Of a DNA stretch of 64,000 nucleotides, positions 6,356 to 62,533 are shown piece by piece. Below the pieces are notes generated by a model. That model was not told the origin of the DNA. It saw only the letters and a program-made list of their open reading frames with translations, and searched no databases. How positions within the stretch are numbered: position 1 is the stretch's first letter; every line of letters starts with the position of its first letter. The DNA comes from a virus. Taxonomy: Duplodnaviria; Heunggongvirae; Uroviricota; Caudoviricetes. The DNA lies in IMG/VR virus record IMGVR_UViG_3300031884_000008. One strand, 5' to 3'. The position numbers and the translations under genes were made by a program.

Positions 6356-9300
6356 ATGACACTAGTTTCTCCAGGTGTAGAAGTAACGATCATTGATCAA
6401 TCTCAATATCTTCCGGCCCCGCTCGGTACAATTCCTTTTGTTTTGCTCGCGACCGCAGCAAACAAAGCTGATCCTACTTCTACTTCTGTAGCAGTCGGAA
6501 CCACAGCAGCAAACGCAAACACGCTATTTCAAATCACTAGTCAACGTGATCTTGTAACTCTATATGGTAATCCATTCTTCTATACGACTTCGAATGGTAC
6601 TCCTATTCAAGGATACGAACTCAATGAATATGGTTTGCTAGCTGCATATTCTGCACTAGGTGTATCTAACTTAATTTACTGCCTAAGAGCAGATATCGAC
6701 CTCGCAAGTCTAGTAGGACAGACTGGTCGTCCTACTGGAAATCCAGCTGACGGAACTTATTGGTTAGATACTACTAACACCACTTGGGGCATTTACGAAT
6801 TTAATTCTACTACTGGGCAATTTGAAATTCAATCTCCGATTGAAATTAGCGATATTACGCTAGTATCTGCTGGATATCCAATTCAAAGCTTGGGTTCAGT
6901 GGGTGATTACGCGGTGATCGCAATTCCTAATTACACATATCCTTCTGCAAACAATGCTAAACAATTCTTCTATAAGAACTCATTTAATCAATGGGTGGCA
7001 ATCGGAACGTCTGCTTGGTTCGCTTCGGTTCCTACGGTTCAAGGTAGCAATTCACTACCAACGTTGAATTCAGGTGATTCTATCAGCATTGCGATGGGTG
7101 GCCCTGCAAACGGAGCGAATGGTCCCGTTTATACTATTACTGGACAGACTACTGTTTTTGGTCTAGCATCAGCTATTAATGCTTTACAGCGTCCGTATTT
7201 GTCAGCAAGTGTTGTAGGCGGAAATCTTCAACTTTTCTCTACACAAACTGGACAGGCTCCTAATAACAGCGTTCCGTTTTACATTAATATTTCAGGTACC
7301 GGCACAATGCTTACCTCCTTGGGCATTACCGCAGGTAATTATTTCCAACCGAATGTTGCCTATGGTACATCTGCACAGCAGCCATTATGGCAACAAGGTC
7401 AACTTTTCCCGAGCCCAACTGGATCAGTTTGGATCAAGATTGGATCTGCTGGCACTGGATTCAATCCAGTAATATCACAATGGGACAGCACACAGGCAGT
7501 TTGGTCTTCTAAAACTGTATCATTCGCTACTAGCGACGTTGCTGCGATCAATTCATTAGATTCAACTGGTGGAAAAAACATTCCAGCTGGAACGGTCTAT
7601 GCGCAATACAACTATGATGCTGATATCATCAATACTTCAGGCGTTCCTGGTTATCAAGCAGGTCCAATTTATTATTGGGAAAGACTTACATCTGGTCCAA
7701 CTGTAATTACTGGTTCTATGCAAGATCCTACATTTACTAATGGCCCATATACTAGTCATGTGTATGTTTCAATTCCAGGATCAAACGGATTGTCAGCACC
7801 TTATACGCTTAGTGTCGCAGATAACGCTACAGCGCTTGACTTTGTAACTGCTTGGACGACTGCTGCTATTCCATATACAACAGCTATGTTATTGGATACT
7901 GGAGAAATTCAATTGACTCACACTGAGGGTGGCGTGATCGTAGTAAATGACTTTGACACTAGTACATTCCAACCAAACGGTTTAATGAGTGACGCTGGAT
8001 TTGTTGTAAGTTATACTGAAGGAGTCAAAGTTGGTCCGTTTGTATCACCATTGATGACACCTACACCAACATATACTACTGGCGTAGGAACCGATTTGTC
8101 AATTAGCGTTACTAATAACTTCCAAAATTATCAAGTAAATCCTATTTCTTTTGCAAATCCAGGAACTGGTTATACTGTAGGAGACTTAGTAACATTCCCA
8201 GGTAGCCAATTAGGTGGTACTGGTACTGGTGGAATTACTCCATCAGGAAATGACTTGACTGTAAGAGTTGAAGAAACTTCAACAGGAGCAGTCACTAAAG
8301 TTTCTTACTATGCAGGCTCCGGCGCCGCAAACTACATGGTTGAATTGTCAAATTGGATACAATTTTACATGACTGCAAACGAAGGCGCACCAACTGCGGC
8401 TCCTGCTGATCTAACAAATTGGTTTTATAGTGTAGTAGATCAAGTAGATATTATGGTAAATACTACTACTGGATGGAAGGGCTATAGAAATGCATCATAC
8501 AGCAGTTCAGGTCTTCCTCTTCCATCAGGATCAAACATGACCGACCCTAACGGACCACTTATAAGTGCTTCAGAACCAATGCTGCAATCAAGCGGTCAGG
8601 CCCTTGCATATGGTGATATTTGGATCGACACTAGTGATCTAGAGAATTATCCTCTTATAAATCGTTGGGAAAGCGTAAATGGCGTAGATCAATGGGTAAG
8701 ATTAGATAATACTGATCAGACCAGTTCAACTGGTGTTCTGTTTGCAGATGCACGTTGGGCCACTACACAATACGTTAGCCCGGTTAATGATCCTATTCCA
8801 ACGATCAAGTCATTGTTGACTAGCAACTATCTTGATTTGGATGCACCAGATCCTACTTTATATCCAGTAGGTATGTTATTGTTCAATACTCGTCGTTCGG
8901 GATATAATGTAAAGCAATTCCGTTCTAACTACTTTAACAATAACAGATTCCCAGGAGCAAATATTCCCAATCAAACTGATGCCTGGGTAACAGAATCCGG
9001 GTTGCAAACAAACGGTGCTCCGTATATGGGCCGCAAGGCACAAAGAGCAATGGTTGTTAAGGCAATGCGTGAGGCAATCGACACAAATACTGCAATTCGT
9101 GACGAAGATAACGCATTCACCTTGATTGCAACTCCGAACTATCCTGAACTACAACCTAACATGGTTGTTCTCAATAACGATAGAGGAGACACTGGATTCA
9201 TCATCGGTGATACGCCGATGAGACTAGCAGATGATGCTACCTTAATTCAAGCATGGGCAACTAATGCTGCCAACGCAACGTCAACTGGTGAAGACGGTCT

Positions 9301-10712: not shown

Positions 10713-11891
10713 ATGACTGGATTTATTCAAGATTTACTACAGGACGCTGCCGGAGCCTTCTTCGGCAGCGACTACCTTAGAGACTATACACACGCATCAA
10801 AAACGTTTAGGACAAATGCATATCAAAATGCTCCTAAACTAAAGTTCCTTTTTCATACATATTTTGAAATTAATCCGGCGGTGTACTTTCCTGGATCTCA
10901 GACCAATTATGGTCTATTAGTAAAAGAGGTTAAATTACCATCATTCTCTTTCAGTACTTATCAGATGAATCAATACAACAGAAAGAGAATAATTCAAACT
11001 AAAATCAAGTACGAACCTATAGAAATTACTTTCCACGATGATACTGCAAATCAAGTTAACAAAATGTGGGAAGCATATTACGTTTATTATTACAACGACG
11101 GTGCTAGATCCGGATCGGTATTAGCTGGCGACCCGGGTAGTCCGCCCGGAGCAAATGGCCCGCGTGATGCAGCATATAATGACAGAAATATCTATCAAAA
11201 TAGCCCCGCTGCAACATATGATTGGGGTCTTGTGGGCGGCACTGGCGGAACCCCTACGGACGTGCAAGCAAACAAAAAGGTTCCCTTCTTCAAGCGCATA
11301 ACCGTGTTCGGGTTTGATCAACACAAGTATACTGCATATACCCTAATTAATCCTATAATCACGAATTTCTCACACGACTCGTACAATTACGCCGAGGGTG
11401 CCGGCACAATGGCTAACAGAATGACAGTCGATTATGAGACGGTGTTGTATAATAACGGTGGAATGGATGGCAGAACTCCAGGTAACATTGTAACTTCCTT
11501 CGGTGATCCCGCAAACTATGATACTACTCTGAGTCCTATTGCTAAGCCAGGTTCTCAGGGCACTATTTTCGGACAAGGCGTATTAGTGGATGCAGCAGGA
11601 GGGTTTGTAAATTCACTAAACGAGGGTAACCCAATTGGTGCTATTATGGCTGCTGGAACAGCGTACAACACGTTTAAAAATACCAACCTTGCGCTCACTG
11701 CTAAAACTGAATTGAACACTATGTTAGTGAACTCAGTACAAAACACACCAAATACTAGAAACACATTATTCAACTTCCCAACTGCAAGATCAACTCCAGG
11801 TCCTGCCGGATTAGCAGCATCACCTGTCATTGGTGCAGTGACCTCTGCTATAACAGGAAGCAGAACAGCCGGAACTCAAAACAATAGTTAA
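10713..11891 (+). CDS. gp19-fold tail tube-like protein (gp48/gp54-type baseplate-tube junction candidate)
   Basis: KLKFLFHTYFEIN...VKLPSFSFSTYQMNQYNRKRIIQTKIKYEPIEITFHDD shows a second gp19-like fold. Confidence 0.5.
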   Translation: MTGFIQDLLQDAAGAFFGSDYLRDYTHASKTFRTNAYQNAPKLKFLFHTYFEINPAVYFPGSQTNYGLLVKEVKLPSFSFSTYQMNQYNRKRIIQTKIKYEPIEITFHDDTANQVNKMWEAYYVYYYNDGARSGSVLAGDPGSPPGANGPRDAAYNDRNIYQNSPAATYDWGLVGGTGGTPTDVQANKKVPFFKRITVFGFDQHKYTAYTLINPIITNFSHDSYNYAEGAGTMANRMTVDYETVLYNNGGMDGRTPGNIVTSFGDPANYDTTLSPIAKPGSQGTIFGQGVLVDAAGGFVNSLNEGNPIGAIMAAGTAYNTFKNTNLALTAKTELNTMLVNSVQNTPNTRNTLFNFPTARSTPGPAGLAASPVIGAVTSAITGSRTAGTQNNS

Positions 11892-40847: not shown

Positions 40848-42311
40848 ATGAATAATGATCCAAATGAATTAATAAATTTTGCCCGCCGGTCACTTTTAGG
40901 CACGAGTATGGGATTGGGTGTGATAGCCGGCGCCGAATTATTAGGTGCTACCAAATCACAAGCAGCCAGTGCTGCACCTTCCAGCGAGACTGGCCCAGAT
41001 TTAGGTAAGTTAACTACAGGTCAATTTCCAGCAAGAGCAAAGCGTGTAATTGACATTCACATGAAAGGAGCAGTATCCCAAATTGATACTTTTGATTATA
41101 AGCCAGAAGTTATCAAGCGCCATGGGCAAGAAATTCCACCTTCTGTAAAGGGTCATGGCAAAATATCATCAATGTCTAATGGACAAACTTCTTTCCCTCT
41201 TATGGGTCCTATTGCTCCATATAAACAATATGGTCAATGTGGTCGTTGGGTTTCAGACCTAATGCCACATATAGGGTCTATATCAGATGATCTAACCTTC
41301 ATTCATTCTATATGGACTCCCCAAGTTAATCACGATCCAGCAGACATTCTCATGCATACTGGGTTTCAATTAGCGGGCCGCCCTGCCGCTGGAGCATGGG
41401 TTAATTATGCATTAGGGACTGATAACTCTAATCTCCCTTCATATGTAGTCATGAAATCTCAGTTCCAATCAGCAGGGGTTGGCGCTACTCAGGCTACTTG
41501 GTCAGCAGGATTTTTGCCCTCTAATCACCAAGGTGTTGAATTTCGTTCTGGTAATTCTCCTGTTCTTTATGTAAGCAATCCAGATGGCATTAGTCGTGAA
41601 GAACGAAGAAGTCAAATTGATCTTATCGGTGAATTATCGCGCTATCAGTATCAGACGACCGATGACCCAGAAGTCTTAGCCAAAATTGCTCAATATGAAA
41701 TGGCATATCGTATGCAAGATTCTGTACCTGAGGTAACTGATCTATCTGATGAACCACAATATATACTCGATATGTATGGTCCTCAGGTTCATCAACCAGG
41801 TAGCTTTGCTCGCAATTGCCTATTAACACGTCGTCTTATTGAACGCGGTGTTAAGTATGTCAACCTAATTCAAGTTGGATGGGATCACCATAATGGTATT
41901 GCCCGCCGACATCCTAGTGACTGTTGGGCAGTAGATCAGCCATCTGCTGCTTTGGTGACGGATTTAAAGCAGCGAGGACTTCTAGATGATACTCTTGTAA
42001 CTTGGAAGGGTGAATTCGGTAGAACTGTATACGCGCAAGGAGGAATAAATCCAAACTGCGGGCGTGACCATCACGGAGGAAACTTTACGATGTGGATGGC
42101 CGGAGGCGGAACAAAACCTGGCATCGAATACGGCAAATCAGATGATTTCTCTTATAATGTTGTGGAAAATCCAGTAGAAGTTCACGATTTAAATGCTACT
42201 GTGTTATATCTTTTAGGAATTGATCACAAACAACTTACATACCATTATCAAGGTAGAGATTTCCGTTTAACTGATACTGCAGGTAAAGTAGTTCAAGGAA
42301 TAATTGCTTAA
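40848..42311 (+). CDS. DUF1501 (sulfatase-like) protein with Tat signal, canonical partner of DUF1549/DUF1553 proteins
   Basis: RRSLLG twin-arginine motif; DIHMKGAVSQIDTFDYKPE...GRDHHGGNFTMWMAGGG. Confidence 0.7.
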   Translation: MNNDPNELINFARRSLLGTSMGLGVIAGAELLGATKSQAASAAPSSETGPDLGKLTTGQFPARAKRVIDIHMKGAVSQIDTFDYKPEVIKRHGQEIPPSVKGHGKISSMSNGQTSFPLMGPIAPYKQYGQCGRWVSDLMPHIGSISDDLTFIHSIWTPQVNHDPADILMHTGFQLAGRPAAGAWVNYALGTDNSNLPSYVVMKSQFQSAGVGATQATWSAGFLPSNHQGVEFRSGNSPVLYVSNPDGISREERRSQIDLIGELSRYQYQTTDDPEVLAKIAQYEMAYRMQDSVPEVTDLSDEPQYILDMYGPQVHQPGSFARNCLLTRRLIERGVKYVNLIQVGWDHHNGIARRHPSDCWAVDQPSAALVTDLKQRGLLDDTLVTWKGEFGRTVYAQGGINPNCGRDHHGGNFTMWMAGGGTKPGIEYGKSDDFSYNVVENPVEVHDLNATVLYLLGIDHKQLTYHYQGRDFRLTDTAGKVVQGIIA

Positions 42312-42369
42312 GGCTTGACATTCAGCGTATATTATCGTATTATTCGTTACATAAGAGTTATGCGCGCCT

Positions 42370-42450
42370 GAGGCTGAATGGTTTCACAAGAGTCTCTAAA
42401 GCTCAAGATTGCAGGTTCAAATCCTGTCGGGCCCGCCACTCTTAAAATAT
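42370..42450 (+). pseudogene. tRNA 3'-half remnant (T-arm/acceptor ...GCAGGTTCAAATCCTGTCGGGCCCGCCA) without matching 5' half
   Basis: Canonical T-loop and CCA end seen but no complementary acceptor 5' strand upstream. Confidence 0.35.
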
Positions 42451-42487
42451 ATCTTGACTCCGTATACACCTTATAATAATGTGACTT

Positions 42488-42793
42488 ATGGACATGATCA
42501 CACAAGAACTGAAATCGCTGCACGAGGAATTCACTTCCCGTGTTTTTCAACTGCGTCTGGTTGACGGTGTTCGACGTGATTGGGCAGTTTCTTGGGCTCT
42601 GCTGCAAGATCAAAGTCCCGACTATGCCGAATGCTATGTTCCTCCGATCTTTCCGATTAAAGGACAAGACCTGCTGGAAACTGGTATGAAGCCTGGCAAG
42701 GAAGTTGGTCAACGGCTGCAAGTCATGCGTGATGCTTGGGTTAAATCTCGTTTTACTATGACTAAGGAAGACCTGCTGTCCCATAATAATTGA
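42488..42793 (+). pseudogene. C-terminal remnant of a CCA-adding tRNA nucleotidyltransferase
   Basis: PIKGQDLLETGMKPGKEVGQRLQVMRDAWVKSRFTMTKEDLL resembles the CCA-enzyme C-terminal tail; only ~100 aa; GC ~48%, above neighbours. Confidence 0.4.
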
Positions 42794-42843
42794 CATATAC
42801 TGCATTAAGTTGTAGTATATGTCATTATTATAAAGGAGACATT

Positions 42844-43377
42844 ATGAGTGCTGACCTTCCTACGCTAGTCCCTAGCGTAGTCTTTAAGACTCGGGTTCGT
42901 GACGATAGTATCGAAGGACCCAATCCATATCGCTGGCAAGAAGTAACTTCATTTGACTATTTCGCAGGAAAGCGAGTTGTGCTATTTGCGCTGCCTGGAG
43001 CATTTACCCCTACTTGCTCTACTTACCAACTTCCGGGTTTTGAAAATAACTATCAACAATTTAAGGATTTGGGTATTGACGAAATCTACTGCTTGTCAGT
43101 GAACGATTCGTTCGTCATGAACAAGTGGGCTCAAGACCAAAATCTAAAGAACGTTAAGGTTATTCCGGATGGTTCTGGTGAATTCACTAGCAAGATGAAC
43201 ATGCTTGTTGCTAAGGATAATTTGGGTTTCGGTGTTCGTTCTTGGCGATATGCGGTAATCGTTGACAATGGACGCATTGAAAAGTGGTTTATTGAACCTG
43301 GCATCGAACACAATTGCGATACGGATCCCTACGGTGAATCTTCACCTGAAAACATCCTCGTATATCTGAAAAACTAA
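42844..43377 (+). CDS. peroxiredoxin (Prx5-like, AhpC/TSA family)
   Basis: VLFALPGAFTPTCS peroxidatic Cys motif; AGGAG RBS. Confidence 0.7.
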   Translation: MSADLPTLVPSVVFKTRVRDDSIEGPNPYRWQEVTSFDYFAGKRVVLFALPGAFTPTCSTYQLPGFENNYQQFKDLGIDEIYCLSVNDSFVMNKWAQDQNLKNVKVIPDGSGEFTSKMNMLVAKDNLGFGVRSWRYAVIVDNGRIEKWFIEPGIEHNCDTDPYGESSPENILVYLKN

Positions 43378-43905
43378 CAACCGCGGACAAGCTTCGCATA
43401 AAAAAAGAAGAGGAAACCCGCATCATCTTTCTCTACGGTAGTGCAATACATAAGGCACTAGAGCGCAATGAATTCCAACATACTCCTTTTAAAACTACGA
43501 CAGGAGGATGCGGTAATCCATGGGTAGTGTGTGATATGCTCGATAAGCAGGAAGTTGTATTTGCCCTATTGAAATACGATTTTCGAATCATGACGCCCAA
43601 CGAACCTCTCTACAAAGAATACGATAAACGAGCCAAAACACTAGATTACGATGAAGCAGATTGGATTGATGAAGATGAAGACCTGTAAAATTTTCGTACC
43701 AACCTAGGTTTTCCATCAAATTAATAAGGCAATACGAGAATCGGGAATCAAACACCTGCCGTATCAAAAAAAGTTTGATGGGTACAACATTGAATTTATG
43801 ACTAATGATCATCCTCTAATTTGTTATCTTATTCTTAAATACGACGTGAAATATGAAATATGAAATATGAAATGTCATAAATATACACAGTATGAAAGAT
43901 TCAGT

Positions 43906-44802
43906 ATGTCTGTAGTAATTTTGACCAAAAGAGAAAAGGATTATGAGAATGCTCGTCTCCTAGAAAGTTTTGCCAACCAAGGTATAAACGTACAGTTTGC
44001 CAATCCAGAAAACTTTGATTTAGTTGTTAGGCAAGGTATAGAAACTGGTATAAATTACAATGGATTGACCCTTGAGAAACCCAAACTTTTGTTGACTAGA
44101 ACTGGATCAGGTACAAATGAGTTTGCAAGGGCTTTGATCAGACAGTTTGAAGAAGAAGGAACACCTTGTGTAAATTCCTCTGAGGGAATTGAGATTGCTA
44201 AAGATAAACTTAGAACATCACAATTACTAGTGAGCAATGGAATTCCAATTCCAAATACGATGCTAGTTAGGTTTCCAGTTGAAGTTGATATTGTAGATAG
44301 AAATATTGGTTGGCCTTGCATAGTAAAAGTGATTAGTGGAAGCTATGGTGAAGGTGTATATCTATGTGAAAGAAAAAAAGATTTCAAAAAGCTTATGGAC
44401 TTCACTGATAGTCTAAAAAGTGCAAAAACCTTAATAGTACAAGAATACGTAGGACACCGCCCAGGTGAAGACCTCAGAGTGTTTGTTGTGGGCGGCAAGG
44501 TGATTGGGGCAATGAAACGTATTGCTCCAGTCGGTGACTTCCGTGCTAATATTTCAAATGGTGGTCACGGTGAAACATTTGAGGTCACCGACGAAATTGA
44601 ATACATTGCGAGAGAGACTGCTAGAGTTTGCGGATTGCAAATTGCAGGGATAGACCTCTTGTTTGATGAAAACGGATTTAAAGTTTGTGAAGCAAACTCA
44701 GCTCCAGGCTTTGAGGGCTTCGAACGATATTGCAATATAAATGTAGCAGACCACATCGTAGGATTTGTTAACTTCAAGTTAAACGGGTTAACCCGCAATT
44801 GA
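43906..44802 (+). CDS. RimK-like ATP-grasp ligase (alpha-L-glutamate ligase family)
   Basis: GWPCIVKVISGSYGEGV...IVQEYVGHRPGEDLRVFVVGGKVIGAMKRIAPVGDFRANISNGG aligns with E. coli RimK. Confidence 0.65.
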   Translation: MSVVILTKREKDYENARLLESFANQGINVQFANPENFDLVVRQGIETGINYNGLTLEKPKLLLTRTGSGTNEFARALIRQFEEEGTPCVNSSEGIEIAKDKLRTSQLLVSNGIPIPNTMLVRFPVEVDIVDRNIGWPCIVKVISGSYGEGVYLCERKKDFKKLMDFTDSLKSAKTLIVQEYVGHRPGEDLRVFVVGGKVIGAMKRIAPVGDFRANISNGGHGETFEVTDEIEYIARETARVCGLQIAGIDLLFDENGFKVCEANSAPGFEGFERYCNINVADHIVGFVNFKLNGLTRN

Positions 44803-45258: not shown

Positions 45259-45339
45259 TGGATTTGCATGAGCATCTTCCAGCAGGCAACTACACGGTTG
45301 GTCAGGACATGCAAGGTAATTACGGGCTGGGCTGGTAAA
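45259..45339 (+). pseudogene. 27-codon ORF at the left edge of the GC-rich island (possible truncated toxin remnant)
   Basis: MDLHEHLPAGNYTVGQDMQGNYGLGW; begins where GC content jumps. Confidence 0.25.
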
Positions 45340-45344
45340 AGAAA

Positions 45345-45803
45345 ATGAACACTACGACGACATGCACGGAATGTGGCAATGGCCACTATGAGGAGTACAT
45401 CCTCCCGGAGCACCTGGAGGATGTCGGCGGAATTGAGGTGTGCCTGAAAAACACCGTCCACGTGCGTCGCTGCGCTGGATGTGCGGACGAGATGACCATG
45501 ATCCCGGACATGCGGGGTCTAGTGCGGACGGTGGCTGTGGCTCGTTGCCTGCTGCCGATCAAACTGAACGCGGGTGATATGCGTCTGCTGCGCCGTGCTT
45601 TGGACATGACGCAAAAGGAATTTGCCGAGACGATGGGTATCACGGCTGAGACAGCCTCTCGTTGGGAGAAGGATGGGGGAAAGGGTGTGGGTGACTATTC
45701 GGATCATCTTGTCCGCCACAACGCCTGCGCCCTGCTGGCTGCCGATGCCCCGGGTGAAGGAAAAGATCAACTACGACTATACTGCCCTGCTTTAGGAAAA
45801 TAA
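45345..45803 (+). CDS. MqsA-like antitoxin (N-terminal CxxC...CxxC zinc ribbon + C-terminal HTH-XRE)
   Basis: CTECGNG...CAGCADE zinc ribbon; MTQKEFAETMGITAETASRWE HTH; island GC ~55% vs ~38% flanks. Confidence 0.55.
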   Translation: MNTTTTCTECGNGHYEEYILPEHLEDVGGIEVCLKNTVHVRRCAGCADEMTMIPDMRGLVRTVAVARCLLPIKLNAGDMRLLRRALDMTQKEFAETMGITAETASRWEKDGGKGVGDYSDHLVRHNACALLAADAPGEGKDQLRLYCPALGK

Positions 45804-46279
45804 TGACTCGAAATTGGATTGATGACGTAAAGGGTACTATTCCGGAATATGCGGAATCTGTGGCTGAAACGCTACAATACTCCATAGATGATGCGGTAGC
45901 ACAGTTAGATGAAATAACTGTTCACGGTTGTGCTCTTGCTGCTGCTACCGCAACTGCTAATGGTGGTTTGGCATTTGAAATTTCTATGAATGGTCCACTT
46001 TTCGGATCCGACGAAAGAGAAATAGCAAAGAAAGTAGCAGTGCTTCTAGTTATGGAAGCGACATGCATGTCATATCCTCAATATACTGGTGGATTGACCA
46101 ATGATTGGAATCAACCAAATCACAACGCATATGCTTTTGCAGCAGCCATCGCTATGCAGCACGAAAAATTAATCAATTATTATTCGAGTCTGCTAACAAA
46201 CGGCGGCATAAATGTTAAGGCAAAATCAGCAATTGTGAAAATTGCTGCTGCGATAGCCGCTATTGGTAAGATTACTTAA
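45803..46279 (+). CDS. hypothetical protein, Ala-rich C-terminus
   Basis: TAATG overlap with preceding gene. Confidence 0.4.
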   Translation: MTRNWIDDVKGTIPEYAESVAETLQYSIDDAVAQLDEITVHGCALAAATATANGGLAFEISMNGPLFGSDEREIAKKVAVLLVMEATCMSYPQYTGGLTNDWNQPNHNAYAFAAAIAMQHEKLINYYSSLLTNGGINVKAKSAIVKIAAAIAAIGKIT

Positions 46280-46841
46280 TACCGATTAGCATAAAACGAT
46301 TATACCCTCCGTCGGAGTATCTAATTTCTTTCGTCCCCGAAAAAAGATACTTTGATAGAGGGTATTTTTTTGTTAAGGCATCTAATGACTCATTAGGATT
46401 GACGCACTTCCAAATATCATCATTGTCAATGGTTACATCACTAGATTGAATACATACAAGTTTTCCGTAATCCAAATTTTCAAACCATTCATTTGTGGAC
46501 ATATGTTCAGGTGAACAGTTGACAACAATATCGAAAGAAGCTAAATCATACGTACTGGCGTCAGCAATGATGTTAGTGACAGTCGAGTCGATACACCAAG
46601 CATCGGTGATTCTGTCTGCAATAGGCTTCGTGCTTGCATCTATATCAATGCCCAAAATATGTTGATATAAATTAGGATTGCGTGTAAGAAGCATAAATGA
46701 TAGTACGTTGTACCAACTACCTAAGATAGCAACTTTTGCGCTTTTAGGGACGTAGGGTTCAAGTTCATTGCAGAGCCAAAGTTTACTTTGAATCTGTCCG
46801 TGAGAAAATGCATCGAAATTCATAATCGTATTTATATGCAA
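46272..46841 (-). CDS. hypothetical protein (possible Rossmann-fold methyltransferase-like)
   Basis: KVAILGSWYN...ILGIDID weakly resembles MTase motifs I/II. Confidence 0.35.
   Translation of the reverse strand: MHINTIMNFDAFSHGQIQSKLWLCNELEPYVPKSAKVAILGSWYNVLSFMLLTRNPNLYQHILGIDIDASTKPIADRITDAWCIDSTVTNIIADASTYDLASFDIVVNCSPEHMSTNEWFENLDYGKLVCIQSSDVTIDNDDIWKCVNPNESLDALTKKYPLSKYLFSGTKEIRYSDGGYNRFMLIGIK
46302..46371. terminator. bidirectional terminator between convergent genes
   Basis: ATACCCTC...GAGGGTAT long imperfect hairpin followed by T7. Confidence 0.55.
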
Positions 46842-46848
46842 AAAAGGC

Positions 46849-46877
46849 TTGACAACTGTTTTTAGAAGATGTATAAA
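46849..46877 (+). promoter_or_regulatory. near-consensus sigma70 promoter TTGACA-N17-TATAAAT
   Basis: gcTTGACAactgtttttagaagatgTATAAATaag. Confidence 0.55.
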
Positions 46878-47138
46878 TAAGACTGTAGAGTTGATTGAAA
46901 CGAAAGTTTGAAAAAACCGAAGTTAAAATTAACGTATTATTAACCAGGACTAAATAAGTTTAATATGAACAACACTTGTAACATATCGATGAAGCAGCAT
47001 AACCAACTCTGGGGCCAATTAGCCTCATTGTGCGTCGTTGCGGATGCGGTATACCCTACAAGCATTCGCGGTACCTTTAATCTAAGAGAAGGGTTCCGGG
47101 ATTAGATAAACAGTTCATATAAAACTAGTTTATTTGGT

Positions 47139-47170
47139 CCCTGGGAATCGAAAGATTTTCAGGGTTTTTT
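47139..47170 (+). terminator. rho-independent terminator
   Basis: CCCTG-ggaatcgaaagattttc-CAGGG followed by T6. Confidence 0.65.
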
Positions 47171-47519
47171 ATTAGTTGGAGGCAAGAATCTCTGACAGTT
47201 AGGATGAAAGACCTAACACAAGTGCAAGTCGGAACGAGGCTGCAAAGCACTTTAAAAAATGAACGGGCGGTGTTAGGGATGAAATCTGCGGAGGTAACGC
47301 AGAAAGTAAAAACTTTCAGTGAAGGGCATTGTGACCCTTCGCAAGTGGGGCAGTCCGAAATGCTGGACAACATATCCTCGCTTGTCAATAAAAAGCTAAC
47401 TATTATTATATGAAAACATAGGACTTAAACACAGTCACTGGGCTACGAACCTCGTTGAAGCAACACGTCAATGTGTTTTCTTATAATCATAGTATTCGTA
47501 TATAAATATCAAGTATTAT

Positions 47520-47593
47520 TGTCCCTTCGTCTAATGGTAAGACATCCGTTTTTGGTGCGGATTATCGAGGTTCGAGTCCTTGGGGGACAGCCA
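47520..47593 (+). tRNA. tRNA-Gln(UUG)
   Basis: Cloverleaf by eye; anticodon loop TTTTGGT; CCA encoded; TATAAATA 13 nt upstream. Confidence 0.7.
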
Positions 47594-47664: not shown

Positions 47665-48162
47665 ATGCACGTATGTCACTGCGGTAAAGAGTTTGAAACG
47701 TTCCGTCAATTGAATGGACATAAAAGTGTTCATCGGGAAGGCGGAAGATACTCTATTAGTAGAGGTAGAGCCCGAACAAATATACCTTCGTGTTTGAAAT
47801 GCGAGAAACAATGTGGCGTCAAGCAAAAGTTTTGTTCTAATAAATGTCAAGCAGAATACCAGTCTGCTGAAAAAATTAAAAATTGGTTGATAACCGGTGC
47901 ATTTGATAGCATGGGTTTTCCGGCATGGGCGCGCCGAACTTTAATAGCGTTGCATGGAGCCAAATGTCAGTGGTGTAAATTAGAGCAATGGAACGATCTC
48001 CCAATCACACTAGAATGTGATCATTCAGATGGTAATCCTAATAACAATCATATAGATAATTTAAGGTTGCTTTGTCCAAACTGTCATAGTCAAACTGATT
48101 CCTTTAAAGGAAAAAACAGGGGAAATGGTCGAACGCACCGGTACAAAAATAAGCCGACGTAG
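47665..48162 (+). CDS. HNH endonuclease with N-terminal C2H2-like zinc finger (paralog of 55811)
   Basis: CHCGKEFETFRQLNGHKSVH; ITLECDHSDGNPNNNHIDNLRLLCPNCH; stop overlaps tRNA-Thr start. Confidence 0.65.
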   Translation: MHVCHCGKEFETFRQLNGHKSVHREGGRYSISRGRARTNIPSCLKCEKQCGVKQKFCSNKCQAEYQSAEKIKNWLITGAFDSMGFPAWARRTLIALHGAKCQWCKLEQWNDLPITLECDHSDGNPNNNHIDNLRLLCPNCHSQTDSFKGKNRGNGRTHRYKNKPT

Positions 48163-48530: not shown

Positions 48531-48549
48531 CGCACTTCGTACAATAGTA

Positions 48550-48622
48550 GTACCGCTGTCTCCAAAGCAGCAGACGTGGGTTCGATTCCAATTAGACCCA
48601 CCAAATTGCGCATTGCACACCA
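48550..48622 (+). pseudogene. degenerate tRNA-Trp(CCA)-like copy (good D and anticodon arms, disrupted T-stem/acceptor)
   Basis: GTACAATAGTAGTAC D-arm; GCTGT-CTCCAAA-GCAGC anticodon arm; T-stem 3' strand does not pair. Confidence 0.3.
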
Positions 48623-49605: not shown

Positions 49606-49751
49606 AGAGGATACTCTCGTTGGTACCCTGCACAATGGTTCTGACGAGGAAGGGTAGTGTGCAGCTACCCGAGAGATTATGGGGACGTAAGTGGGCTTAA
49701 CGCCGGGCTGGCAGTTCAGCAGGGAGGGTTCGATTCCCTCCGTCTCCACCA
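49606..49751 (+). ncRNA. structured RNA candidate: 5' nested-helix domain plus tRNA-like 3' module (acceptor GGGGACG/CGTCTCC, T-arm, ACCA)
   Basis: CTCTCG...CGAGAG and CTGCACA...TGTGCAG helices; ...GGGAGGGTTCGATTCCCTCCGTCTCCACCA 3' end. Confidence 0.35.
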
Positions 49752-55810: not shown

Positions 55811-56323
55811 TTGTATACAATCGATCCTAAACGGTGTATACATTGTAGTCAGATTTTAAAATATGAACATCGTCATAGATTGTTTTGCAATTCGTCTTGT
55901 TCTGCTGCCTGTAATAATGCTAAAAGAAAAATAATTTATACAAATATATGTGTTTACTGTAATAATAGTATTTCTAGTAAGGGCAAATATTGTAATAATA
56001 AATGTCAAAATGATCACATTTTTTCTTTAAAAATTAAACAGTGGTTAGATGAAAACCAAGCACCCGGGTTAGGTGCTATCCGTCGATACTTAAAAGAAAC
56101 ATTTGGTTATAAATGCACAGAATGCGGAATCAGTGATTACAATTCTAAACCTATAACATTAGAACTAGAACATAAAGACGGTAATAGTGATAACAATGCA
56201 TTAGAAAATCTTTGTTTGCTATGTCCCAATTGTCATAGCCAAACACCTACTTATAAGGCCAAAAATAAAGGTAACGGTAGACACACTAGAAGACAACGTT
56301 ATGCTGAAGGCAAAAGCTACTAA
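55811..56323 (+). CDS. HNH endonuclease with N-terminal zinc fingers (paralog of 47665)
   Basis: ITLELEHKDGNSDNNALENLCLLCPNCHSQTPTYKAKNKGNGR. Confidence 0.65.
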   Translation: MYTIDPKRCIHCSQILKYEHRHRLFCNSSCSAACNNAKRKIIYTNICVYCNNSISSKGKYCNNKCQNDHIFSLKIKQWLDENQAPGLGAIRRYLKETFGYKCTECGISDYNSKPITLELEHKDGNSDNNALENLCLLCPNCHSQTPTYKAKNKGNGRHTRRQRYAEGKSY

Positions 56324-58240: not shown

Positions 58241-58525
58241 ATGATGTGGTATATCCTTAAGGGGTATACTATTGATGTGGACAGGCCCGGCGAGCGGTGG
58301 TGGTCTCTAAACGGGCAGTGGCACCGAGAAGACGGCCCTGCGGTTGAACATGCGAACGGAACTCGGGCTTGGTATCGCTACGGAGAACTTCACCGAGAAG
58401 ACGGCCCGGCGGTTGAAGATGCGGATGGAACTCGGTATTGGTATCTAAACGACCAAAACATGACCGAAGAAAAACACCGAGAACTCACACAAAAGAACAG
58501 AGAACATGCTACCGCCGATATCTGA
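58241..58525 (+). CDS. MORN-variant repeat protein paralog
   Basis: MMWYILKGYTIDVD...WHREDGPAVE repeats; shares 5' box with 991 ORF. Confidence 0.5.
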   Translation: MMWYILKGYTIDVDRPGERWWSLNGQWHREDGPAVEHANGTRAWYRYGELHREDGPAVEDADGTRYWYLNDQNMTEEKHRELTQKNREHATADI

Positions 58526-58847
58526 TGAACAAATGATGTGGGATACTCTAAAGGGTTATAGAGTCGTTACGTATAGTAGCGGAACTCGTATGTGGTTTTT
58601 GAATAGAACCCTACACCGAGAAGCCGGCCCTGCAGTAATTGGTATTAACAGCGTATGTTGGTATCGCTACGGAGAACTTCACCGAGAAGACGGCCCTGCG
58701 TTGGAACGTGCTAACGGTGACAAAGAATGGTATTTTAACGGACAACGTCACCGAGAAGACGGCCCTGCGATTGAATGTGCAGATGGAACTAAACATTGGT
58801 ATGTTAACGGTAGGGAAGTTTACAAAGAAATTAAAATAGCCGGTTGA
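58506..58847 (+). CDS. MORN-variant repeat protein paralog
   Basis: MLPPISDEQMMW...LHREDGPA repeats. Confidence 0.5.
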   Translation: MLPPISDEQMMWDTLKGYRVVTYSSGTRMWFLNRTLHREAGPAVIGINSVCWYRYGELHREDGPALERANGDKEWYFNGQRHREDGPAIECADGTKHWYVNGREVYKEIKIAG

Positions 58848-58904
58848 CAGTAAGAAAATGATTTGCTACTATGCATCATAGAGATTGAACAAAGGAGCTG
58901 AACA

Positions 58905-62258: not shown

Positions 62259-62318
62259 TTTTTAATAAAATCGGTTGACACGCAGCACACTGTTTGCTAC
62301 TATGAATCATACAGATAC

Positions 62319-62393: not shown

Positions 62394-62402
62394 AATTTTA
62401 TT

Positions 62403-62432
62403 ACTAGACAGTCTGCTAGCAGACTGTCTAGT
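62403..62432. repeat. 30-nt perfect palindrome ACTAGACAGTCTGCTAGCAGACTGTCTAGT
   Basis: Exact self-complementarity centred on GCTAGC; followed by tRNA 3'-end-like GAGTTCGAGTCCCAGAGGGTTCACCA (62436-62466). Confidence 0.85.
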
Positions 62433-62533
62433 AAACTAGATGAGTTCGAGTCCCAGAGGGTTCACCAAAGTCACCCAAATTGATTGTGTTGAATATATAA
62501 GTGTTGTATAATTGACACTATCAAAGGGTTTAC

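Follow-up and report, generated by a model that had tools for sequence, protein, structure and literature searches.

The 64,000-nucleotide (nt) stretch of DNA considered here (IMG/VR record IMGVR_UViG_3300031884_000008, Caudoviricetes; hereafter, the window) is part of a giant tailed phage and encodes a tail sheath protein of 1220 amino acids and a ribonucleotide reductase. A scan of the window for transfer RNA (tRNA) genes returned 28, all on the + strand, between positions 47520 and 62393. Our subject is the gap ahead of this array, between a divergent gene for a protein of 189 amino acids (46272-46841, - strand) and the tRNA-Gln(UUG) gene. The initial annotation described some 800 nt of non-coding DNA here; the gap measures ~680 nt, and 141 nt of it belong to a conserved open reading frame (ORF). 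On balance, we favour the view that the region is the conserved control head of a phage tRNA operon, comprising a ribosome-dependent attenuator (46849-47170) and an RNA produced by read-through (47175-47493). The features concerned are the following.

46849..46878, + strand: candidate promoter P1, TTGACA-17 nt-TATAAA(T), read from the sequence; -35 hexamer kept in relatives
46944..46972, + strand: Segment A, the 5′ untranslated region (UTR) and start-codon region (CCAGGACUAAAUAAGUUUAAUAUGAAC), which pairs with the post-stop segment 47113-47137 (helix conservation, minimum free energy (MFE) folds)
46965..47105, + strand: leader ORF of 46 codons (MNNTCNISMKQHNQLWGQLASLCVVADAVYPTSIRGTFNLREGFRD), from the ORF listing; open in every relative
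47096..47148, + strand: predicted antiterminator hairpin (folding, -22.3 kcal/mol, z = -4.0), kept in 52 of 53 relatives
47139..47170, + strand: intrinsic terminator hairpin and U-tract (scan; folding, -15.9 kcal/mol; compensatory changes)
47175..47217, + strand: two optional hairpins (GUUGGAG/CUCUGAC and GUUAGG/CCUAAC; pairing conservation)
47221..47401, + strand: structured “array-head RNA” of 181 nt (covariation; covariance model)
47399..47493, + strand: long A/U-rich hairpin (folding, z = -2.4)
47501..47508, + strand: TATAAATA box, 11 nt before tRNA-Gln, read from the sequence
47520..47593, + strand: tRNA-Gln(UUG), first of the array’s 28 tRNAs (tRNA scan); also the first tRNA after the element in nearly all relatives

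Matches to consensus sequences carry little weight in this A/T-rich region. Between 44000 and 52000, there are 14 promoter-like and five terminator-like sites, where shuffled sequence gives 17.3 and 7.0, respectively. As these matches do not exceed chance, we relied on a comparison with relatives. Ten IMG/VR contigs were reached through the neighbouring gene, and across them the whole intergenic block shares 67-75% DNA identity. A search with an invariant 20-mer returned 36 viral and 56 metagenome loci after the removal of false hits in coding regions; the resulting set has 93 sequences including the window, 53 of them distinct. Freshwater samples are the source of these contigs, amongst them Ga0316219_1000008 and Ga0209777_10078327, the latter with a core sequence identical to that of the window. 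A scan with a 15-nt leader motif gave mostly chance matches, in which cmsearch recognised five diverged members (types F and G). In all, some 95 metagenomic phage contigs have the block ahead of their tRNA array, in about 55 distinct sequences. The breadth of the family is underestimated, as relatives were gathered by exact-pattern scans; their viral contigs reach 363 kb. Wherever the flank suffices, the block is found 230-500 nt upstream of the first tRNA gene of an array, on the same strand, and the ORF, the terminator and the RNA stay linked in every lineage, very diverged ones included. The initial annotation had allowed for a diverged remnant and proposed a conservation analysis in related phages; by that analysis, the block is functional and not decayed. 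Amongst the 50,697 deposited phage genomes of INPHARED, no DNA similarity to the block was found except for tRNA-Gln itself, while 185,579 reference genomes of bacteria and archaea contained no member (just two false pattern hits). The neighbouring gene has a single cultured relative, in Ralstonia phage RsoM2USA, where neither tRNAs nor a leader adjoin it.

The near-perfect sigma-70 promoter of the initial annotation is indeed present. TTGACA (46849-46854) and TATAAA(T) (46872-46878) together match 11 of 12 consensus positions (6/6 and 5/6), and their 17-nt spacer falls within the 16-18 nt typical of sigma-70-type promoters. Our promoter scan skipped P1 because it demands a T at the last -10 position, which is missing here. 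In 52 of the 53 distinct relatives, a -35 TTGACA occurs 103-124 nt upstream of the ATG. From the position of the hexamers, transcription would start near 46884. Two further promoter-like sites were dismissed: TTGTCA-N16-TATTAT (47382-47409) overlaps helix H5 of the array-head RNA and an arm of the long hairpin, with a spacing not kept in relatives, and the TATAAATA box, present near tRNA-Gln as annotated earlier, is without a good -35 and kept in few relatives only.

Other promoter-like elements deserve mention. A 55-nt block with TTGACA-N17-TACTAT occurs in two copies within the array (58843-58871 and 62274-62302), the second just before tRNA-Lys (62319); judging by sequence, these are likely internal promoters of the array. 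In type G (loci L131 and L154), CAGGACTAAATAAACT is the 17-nt spacer of a TTGACA...TACAAT promoter, while in the main family it lies in the transcribed 5′ UTR; the related TACTAT is the -10 of the internal array promoters in the window. CAGGACTAAATAAACT may thus have a DNA-level history or a second role.

The 46-codon ORF, dismissed as weak in the initial annotation, is conserved. Each of the 35 distinct nucleotide versions, which encode 30 peptides, has the frame open over 45-47 codons, the other two frames having about three stops each, and indels amongst relatives are multiples of three. Along a minimum spanning tree of close relatives, differences at codon positions 1, 2 and 3 number 27, 39 and 58 (p = 0.003), and 40 of 100 codon changes are synonymous. 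Pairwise ratios of nonsynonymous to synonymous change (pN/pS) amongst close pairs range between 0.15 and 0.5. Conserved residues are found in the stretches C-N-I-S-x-K-Q-H, L-W-G and Y-P-T-S-x-R-G-x-F. A protein database search with the window peptide returned no homologue, and the version of one relative has no Pfam domain. The ORF lies wholly upstream of the terminator and ends 34 nt before its stem. Since it is conserved with a coding signature, the unit is a leader-ORF transcript and not a small RNA devoid of an ORF. The promoter-to-terminator unit stands as annotated, and the stretch is mostly non-coding, but the unit does not lack a convincing ORF. A translated and conserved small ORF had been named as the finding that would speak against the small RNA: conservation is evident, and translation we infer from the coding signature.

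The leader ORF of the window ends in UAG; most relatives use UAA or UGA. A tRNA with a CUA anticodon (called “Pyl” by ARAGORN; an amber suppressor) occurs in three relatives (L001, 9869-9943; L003, 7387-7461; L009, 8619-8693), some 3-4 kb from the leader, beyond the gene for the 189-amino-acid protein.

The strong intrinsic terminator reported before at 47139-47170 was likewise found, as a G+C-rich hairpin followed by a U-tract. Its stem (47139-47164) has 11 pairs, five of them G-C, and a loop of four, and is followed by TTTTTTATTA with six U’s. Across 48 relatives, the stem is 98.7% paired, with 19 double changes from C-G to U-A. The U-tract is strong in the window; in relatives it is mostly UUUUCC(A/U)UUU and weaker, and it is degenerate in some type C members.

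A second hairpin competes with the terminator. The 5′ arm of this antiterminator begins 16 nt before the stop codon and consists of the last codons and the UAG (47103-47105), and its 3′ arm takes 10 nt (47139-47148) of the terminator’s 5′ arm, so that the two structures are mutually exclusive. In the 53 distinct leaders, the predicted antiterminator has a median folding energy of -22.3 kcal/mol, against -17.3 for the terminator, and a median z of -4.9; it is the stronger of the two in 49. At least five of nine terminator-arm bases pair with the end of the ORF in 52 of the 53, and the stop codon itself is paired in 51. Within the ORF, the stretch that best complements the terminator arm always falls 9-17 nt before the stop codon. 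This complement, UUCCGGGAU, is read as F-R-D in the window and as P-G in most relatives; its being read in different frames suggests that the RNA itself is constrained. The architecture recurs in types F and G with unrelated arm sequences. In L160, the antiterminator has 14 paired bases (-26.2 versus -18.8 kcal/mol for the terminator), and in L131, a perfect 13-bp (base pair) stem embeds a UAA stop (-18.9 versus -12.0 kcal/mol).

The post-stop segment is engaged in a third, long-range helix. The strings CUAAAUAAGU and AUAUGAAC of Segment A are complementary to GUUCAUAU and AGUUUAUUUGG behind the stop codon, and the two sub-helices are 92% and 85% paired in 48 sequences, with changes mostly to G-U. 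The stop region offers the post-stop segment a second, local partner (98% paired), so that two conserved pairings of this segment exclude each other. In full-length folds without a ribosome, the terminator is predicted for 50 of the 53 leaders, the long-range helix for 44 and the antiterminator for two. The long-range helix is also in the full-length MFE fold of the window and is absent in type G. Overall, the predicted structure of 46884-47170 (~290 nt) is strong (z = -5.1). We considered that the palindrome TAAACTAGTTTA could be a DNA operator: its symmetry is kept by both CTAG and CATG variants, but RNA pairing accounts better for the changes, which tolerate G-U.

In the main family, the next conserved element starts only 5-12 nt past the U-tract, and no promoter-like sequence occurs in the interval between the terminator and the RNA. 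The optional hairpins occur in 12 of 48 sequences, the window included; over these sequences, pairing amounts to 96% and 94% in the two hairpins, and both partners have changed in six pairs. The maintained pairing and the lack of a promoter in between suggest that this region is selected as RNA and is reached by transcription through the terminator hairpin. The earlier statement that 47172-47519 is without a credible gene is correct inasmuch as no ORF is conserved there: an ORF of 69 amino acids (47204-47413) is interrupted by stops in 29 of 43 relatives, and a reverse ORF of 87 amino acids in 30 of 43. What had been missed is the structured array-head RNA at 47221-47401, made up as follows.

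47221-47251, + strand: H1, which has a 3-bp stem inside and a loop of seven bases, AACGAG-N
47239:47264, + strand: lone pair, last loop base with a linker base
47271-76/47313-18, + strand: H2, which encloses H3 via a conserved internal loop, GAUGAAA / GAGUAAAAA
47285-90/47298-303, + strand: H3 (covariation)
47319-26/47335-42, + strand: H4 (covariation)
47343-49/47377-83, + strand: H5, long (covariation)
47353-57/47364-68, + strand: H6 (covariation)
47384-47401, + strand: tail

Covariation bears out this hand-built structure. Its 41 pairs are 92.2% paired, compared with 34-52% when the 3′ partner is slid by one to three columns; 22 pairs have changed on both sides, and none of 500 shuffles was as good. 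The tertiary pair 47239:47264 is seen as G-C, C-G, U-A and A-U. G-U wobbles within the helices fix the strand as +. On the window, the covariance model scores 201 bits (E = 1.7e-51), and there is exactly one copy per locus. Subtypes vary in H3, in whether H4 is present and in the 3′ part. Four sequences, AACGAG, GGGCGG, GGAUGAA and (G)UAAAA, do not vary, not even in types F and G. Next to the tRNA, a 7-bp closing helix was seen in type C only. In type D (L015 and L046), a basic ORF of 64 amino acids (MYKRTAKSTHRKM...KKRRKKFG...) with a strong Shine-Dalgarno sequence follows at most ~25 nt after the RNA; Pfam gave no match for it. For the invariant GGGCGG, MFE partners were inconsistent across relatives and downstream duplexes no better than those of shuffles (median p = 0.2); in the window, duplex energies revealed no downstream partner.

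A search of 46849-47519 against Rfam 15, which includes GOLLD, ROOL, RNase P, transfer-messenger RNA (tmRNA), 6S and riboswitches, gave no family match at E <= 10; weak hits in the interval are one of 23 bits to CopA, on the terminator, and two of 13-15 bits. Six loci of other subtypes likewise had no match in Rfam 15 at E <= 0.1. By sequence and covariation, the array-head RNA is thus a new structured RNA family with ~55 distinct members. Two resemblances did not hold. The likeness of the tail CGCUUGUCAACAA to the rrn/lambda boxA extends to some 9 of 13 positions only; part of the tail is base-paired, and types C and D have not kept it. Furthermore, the tRNA-gene neighbourhood, the look-alike string GGAAAGUCCG, a CAAG-U-CGG/CG-CUUG pairing similar to P4 with its bulged U, and ACAACAUA with CGCUUGUC, similar to CR-V, are reminiscent of the minimal core of RNase P RNA. 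However, CGCUUG covaries with an internal CAAGCG (GGAGCG/CGCUCC in type D) and not with the invariant CAAG-U-CGG, and covariation assigns GUCCG to a local hairpin, so that the P4-like helix cannot form; no RNase P model matches.

Behind the RNA, where the window has the hairpin at 47399..47493, relatives carry one or two long A/U-rich hairpins (median z = -3.3; 29 of 33 below -2) with unrelated stem sequences. We would guess that these hairpins are double-strand processing sites.

The pairings described above suggest how the control head could work. A sigma-70-type promoter would drive a 5′ UTR of ~80 nt, the 46-codon leader ORF and the intrinsic terminator, with three mutually exclusive pairings in the transcript: (i) the start-codon and 5′-UTR region with the post-stop segment; (ii) the antiterminator, that is, the ORF end and stop codon with the post-stop segment and the terminator’s 5′ arm; and (iii) the terminator. 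In the absence of a ribosome, (i) and (iii) would form, resulting in termination. A ribosome lagging on the leader would open (i) and let the stronger, earlier-made (ii) form, resulting in read-through, while a ribosome at the stop codon would cover the 5′ arm of (ii), by which (iii) forms and transcription terminates. Slow translation of the leader would therefore raise downstream expression. The read-through product would run from the optional hairpins through the 181-nt RNA and the long hairpin straight into tRNA-Gln and the array; cleavage by RNase P at the tRNA 5′ end and by a double-strand nuclease within the long hairpin would probably set it free. The array-head RNA could be a stable RNA, or a leader acting in cis in processing or antitermination.

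A more specific version, which we put forward tentatively and hold to be possible rather than probable, is that the phage gauges the speed of host ribosomes over the 46-codon leader by means of a trp-like, three-helix attenuator: slow translation would lead to transcription of the tRNA set, and the response would be self-correcting, while the 181-nt RNA would be needed for expression or processing of the array. In that case, the RNA could serve in processive antitermination, as a scaffold for processing or as the partner of a protein of the phage or the host.

The predicted leader resembles those of trpL, hisL, pheL and pheM (of the pheST operon), in which a short ORF ends before an intrinsic terminator begins. 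As modelled, its antiterminator likewise shares bases of the terminator’s 5′ arm and would be covered by a ribosome at the leader stop codon, and the third helix, equivalent to 1:2, would favour termination when the leader is untranslated. The leader stop codon is ~65 nt from the end of the U-tract, and this distance is similar in trpL. Unlike the trpL-type leaders, the phage leader is without tandem regulatory codons, is longer (45-61 codons) and encodes a partly conserved peptide; its anti-antiterminator segment overlaps the start codon rather than sensor codons, and it is phage-borne and would gate a structured RNA and tRNA genes instead of biosynthetic enzymes.

The tRNA cluster of phage T4 encodes the small stable RNAs species 1 and 2 (rnaC/rnaD). 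The large GOLLD and ROOL RNAs often adjoin phage tRNA genes as well (PMC12286853). All of these are structured non-coding RNAs that, like the array-head RNA, adjoin phage tRNA genes on the same strand and presumably share their precursor. The array-head RNA has no sequence or structure match to them, is missed by the Rfam models of GOLLD and ROOL, and measures 181 nt instead of their 600-800 nt; unlike them, it always opens the array on the 5′ side, preceded by a leader ORF and a terminator. A further parallel is rnTrpL of Sinorhizobium (PMC6614838), a small RNA that derives from an attenuator; this terminated leader transcript encodes a peptide as well. By analogy, the terminated phage leader could also act as an RNA, although it has no sequence relation to rnTrpL and no trans targets are known or predicted for it.

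Several observations weigh against the ribosome-dependent control head. Not one of the 30 peptide variants repeats a codon in a tandem run. Runs of codons for one amino acid are the hallmark of classical attenuators, and without a regulatory codon run, the leader is not a classical amino-acid attenuator: it would sense overall ribosome progress, if anything. The peptide is, going by its sequence, moderately conserved, more than a pure sensor ORF needs, and may have a function of its own or act as a nascent-chain signal. The sole Shine-Dalgarno-like sequence, AGGA, lies as far as 15 nt from the AUG. The attenuator helices show modest covariation, as there is hardly any variation in either strand, and all relatives are metagenomic contigs. 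Moreover, type F has a good promoter between terminator and RNA, and type G an ORF of 55 codons; the RNA therefore does not depend on read-through everywhere. If the two TTGACA-N17-TACTAT copies in the array of the window act as internal promoters, the attenuator cannot control the whole array alone. Some of these points suit another explanation, by which two unrelated neighbours meet here: an ordinary small gene, the helices of which tune messenger stability or translation, and a stable RNA with tRNAs that are separately transcribed, with no control by read-through. The peptide is under some purifying selection, the RNA of type F has its own promoter in front, the array has likely internal promoters, and the terminator of the window, with 11 bp and six U’s, is strong. 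Such an arrangement leaves unexplained why the RNA or the optional hairpins of the main family start 5-12 nt past the U-tract with no promoter in between, why the linkage of ORF, terminator and RNA is kept in all lineages, and why a free-standing gene would need an antiterminator that includes its stop codon and, in 49 of 53 leaders, exceeds the terminator in stability. We thus regard it as rather doubtful, and retain the control head as the preferred reading.

The other explanations concern one half of the region each. The 181-nt RNA has features of a ligand-sensing riboswitch or another cis-regulator of downstream genes, to which the leader ORF would be incidental: a compact multi-helix fold with invariant single-stranded AACGAG, GGGCGG and GGAUGAA and, in type D, a position directly upstream of a Shine-Dalgarno sequence and an ORF, where the 3′ strand of H5, CGCUCC, could mask GGAG. 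Nevertheless, neither a terminator nor a consistent sequestering helix follows the RNA, the targets downstream are mostly tRNAs, for which translation control is not needed, and no riboswitch model matches; we consider this role improbable. For the upstream half, the initial annotation had proposed a candidate small RNA. A promoter and a terminator do frame a transcript of ~290 nt with strong predicted structure (z = -5.1), and attenuated leaders can act in trans, as rnTrpL does (PMC6614838). A non-coding, trans-acting RNA with a fortuitous ORF is nevertheless very unlikely in view of the frame being open in 35 of 35 versions, with indels in frame, about three stops in each of the other frames and a third-position bias; no Rfam family matches either. 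Even less probable is a type I toxin-antitoxin-like messenger, similar to hok in that a fold-back hides the start codon of a small toxic peptide. The long-range pairing does enclose a small ORF and sequester its start codon, but the peptide has no hydrophobic membrane helix (many variants have R, E, T and S centrally), no antisense RNA gene is evident as far as a promoter scan can tell, and the fixed place at the head of the tRNA array would go unexplained.

The surroundings of the locus have some peculiarities of their own. Just upstream of the leader, a G+C island (45300-45750; 58-61% versus ~38% around) is probably a recent acquisition. An ORF in it (45345-45803, + strand) specifies a protein of 152 amino acids that has a Cys-rich segment at its N terminus, contains an HTH_3 domain and resembles an antitoxin or repressor of the MqsA type. 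At 40848-44802, a few kb before the leader, genes for a RimK-like ATP-grasp ligase (E = 2e-46) and for a DUF1501 protein (E = 3e-147) are found, both of them unusual cargo for a phage. Amongst the tRNA genes, two ORFs for HNH endonucleases (47665-48162 and 55811-56323) share a 62-nt stretch that is 71% identical, and four to five copies of a 69-nt (23-codon) repeat occur at 58301-58809, inside the small ORFs 58241-58525 and 58506-58847. A partial tRNA-like match (48539-48592; model positions 10-63, 30 bits) was not called by ARAGORN, and a 71-nt “tRNA-Ala(GGC)” (49681-49751) scores 36.7 bits with the tmRNA model; these could be tRNA remnants or variants. A perfect 17+17-nt palindrome (62401-62434) directly follows tRNA-Lys. 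With regard to the relatives, L014 harbours a permuted, two-piece tmRNA (11505-11828, - strand; 71.7 bits versus an Rfam gathering score of 47), and a weaker match to betaproteobacterial tmRNA hints at a betaproteobacterial host. In L019, a group I intron (7309-7502, + strand; 56.5 bits, gathering score 50) is located in the region of the tRNA array.

The array-head RNA offers a clean new family for biochemical and structural work, with heavy covariation, invariant loops and a tertiary pair that covaries in four ways. The locus as a whole touches on the question of why the tRNA genes of large phages number in the dozens and when these are used. If the control head operates as proposed, the translation-sensing gate would give a phage tRNA array its first described regulatory logic, and attenuation by a leader ORF would extend from amino-acid operons to RNA genes, with a sensor devoid of codon runs. 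Read-through would then be predicted to rise when ribosomes are slow, by which the question of tRNA use by the phage would become testable.

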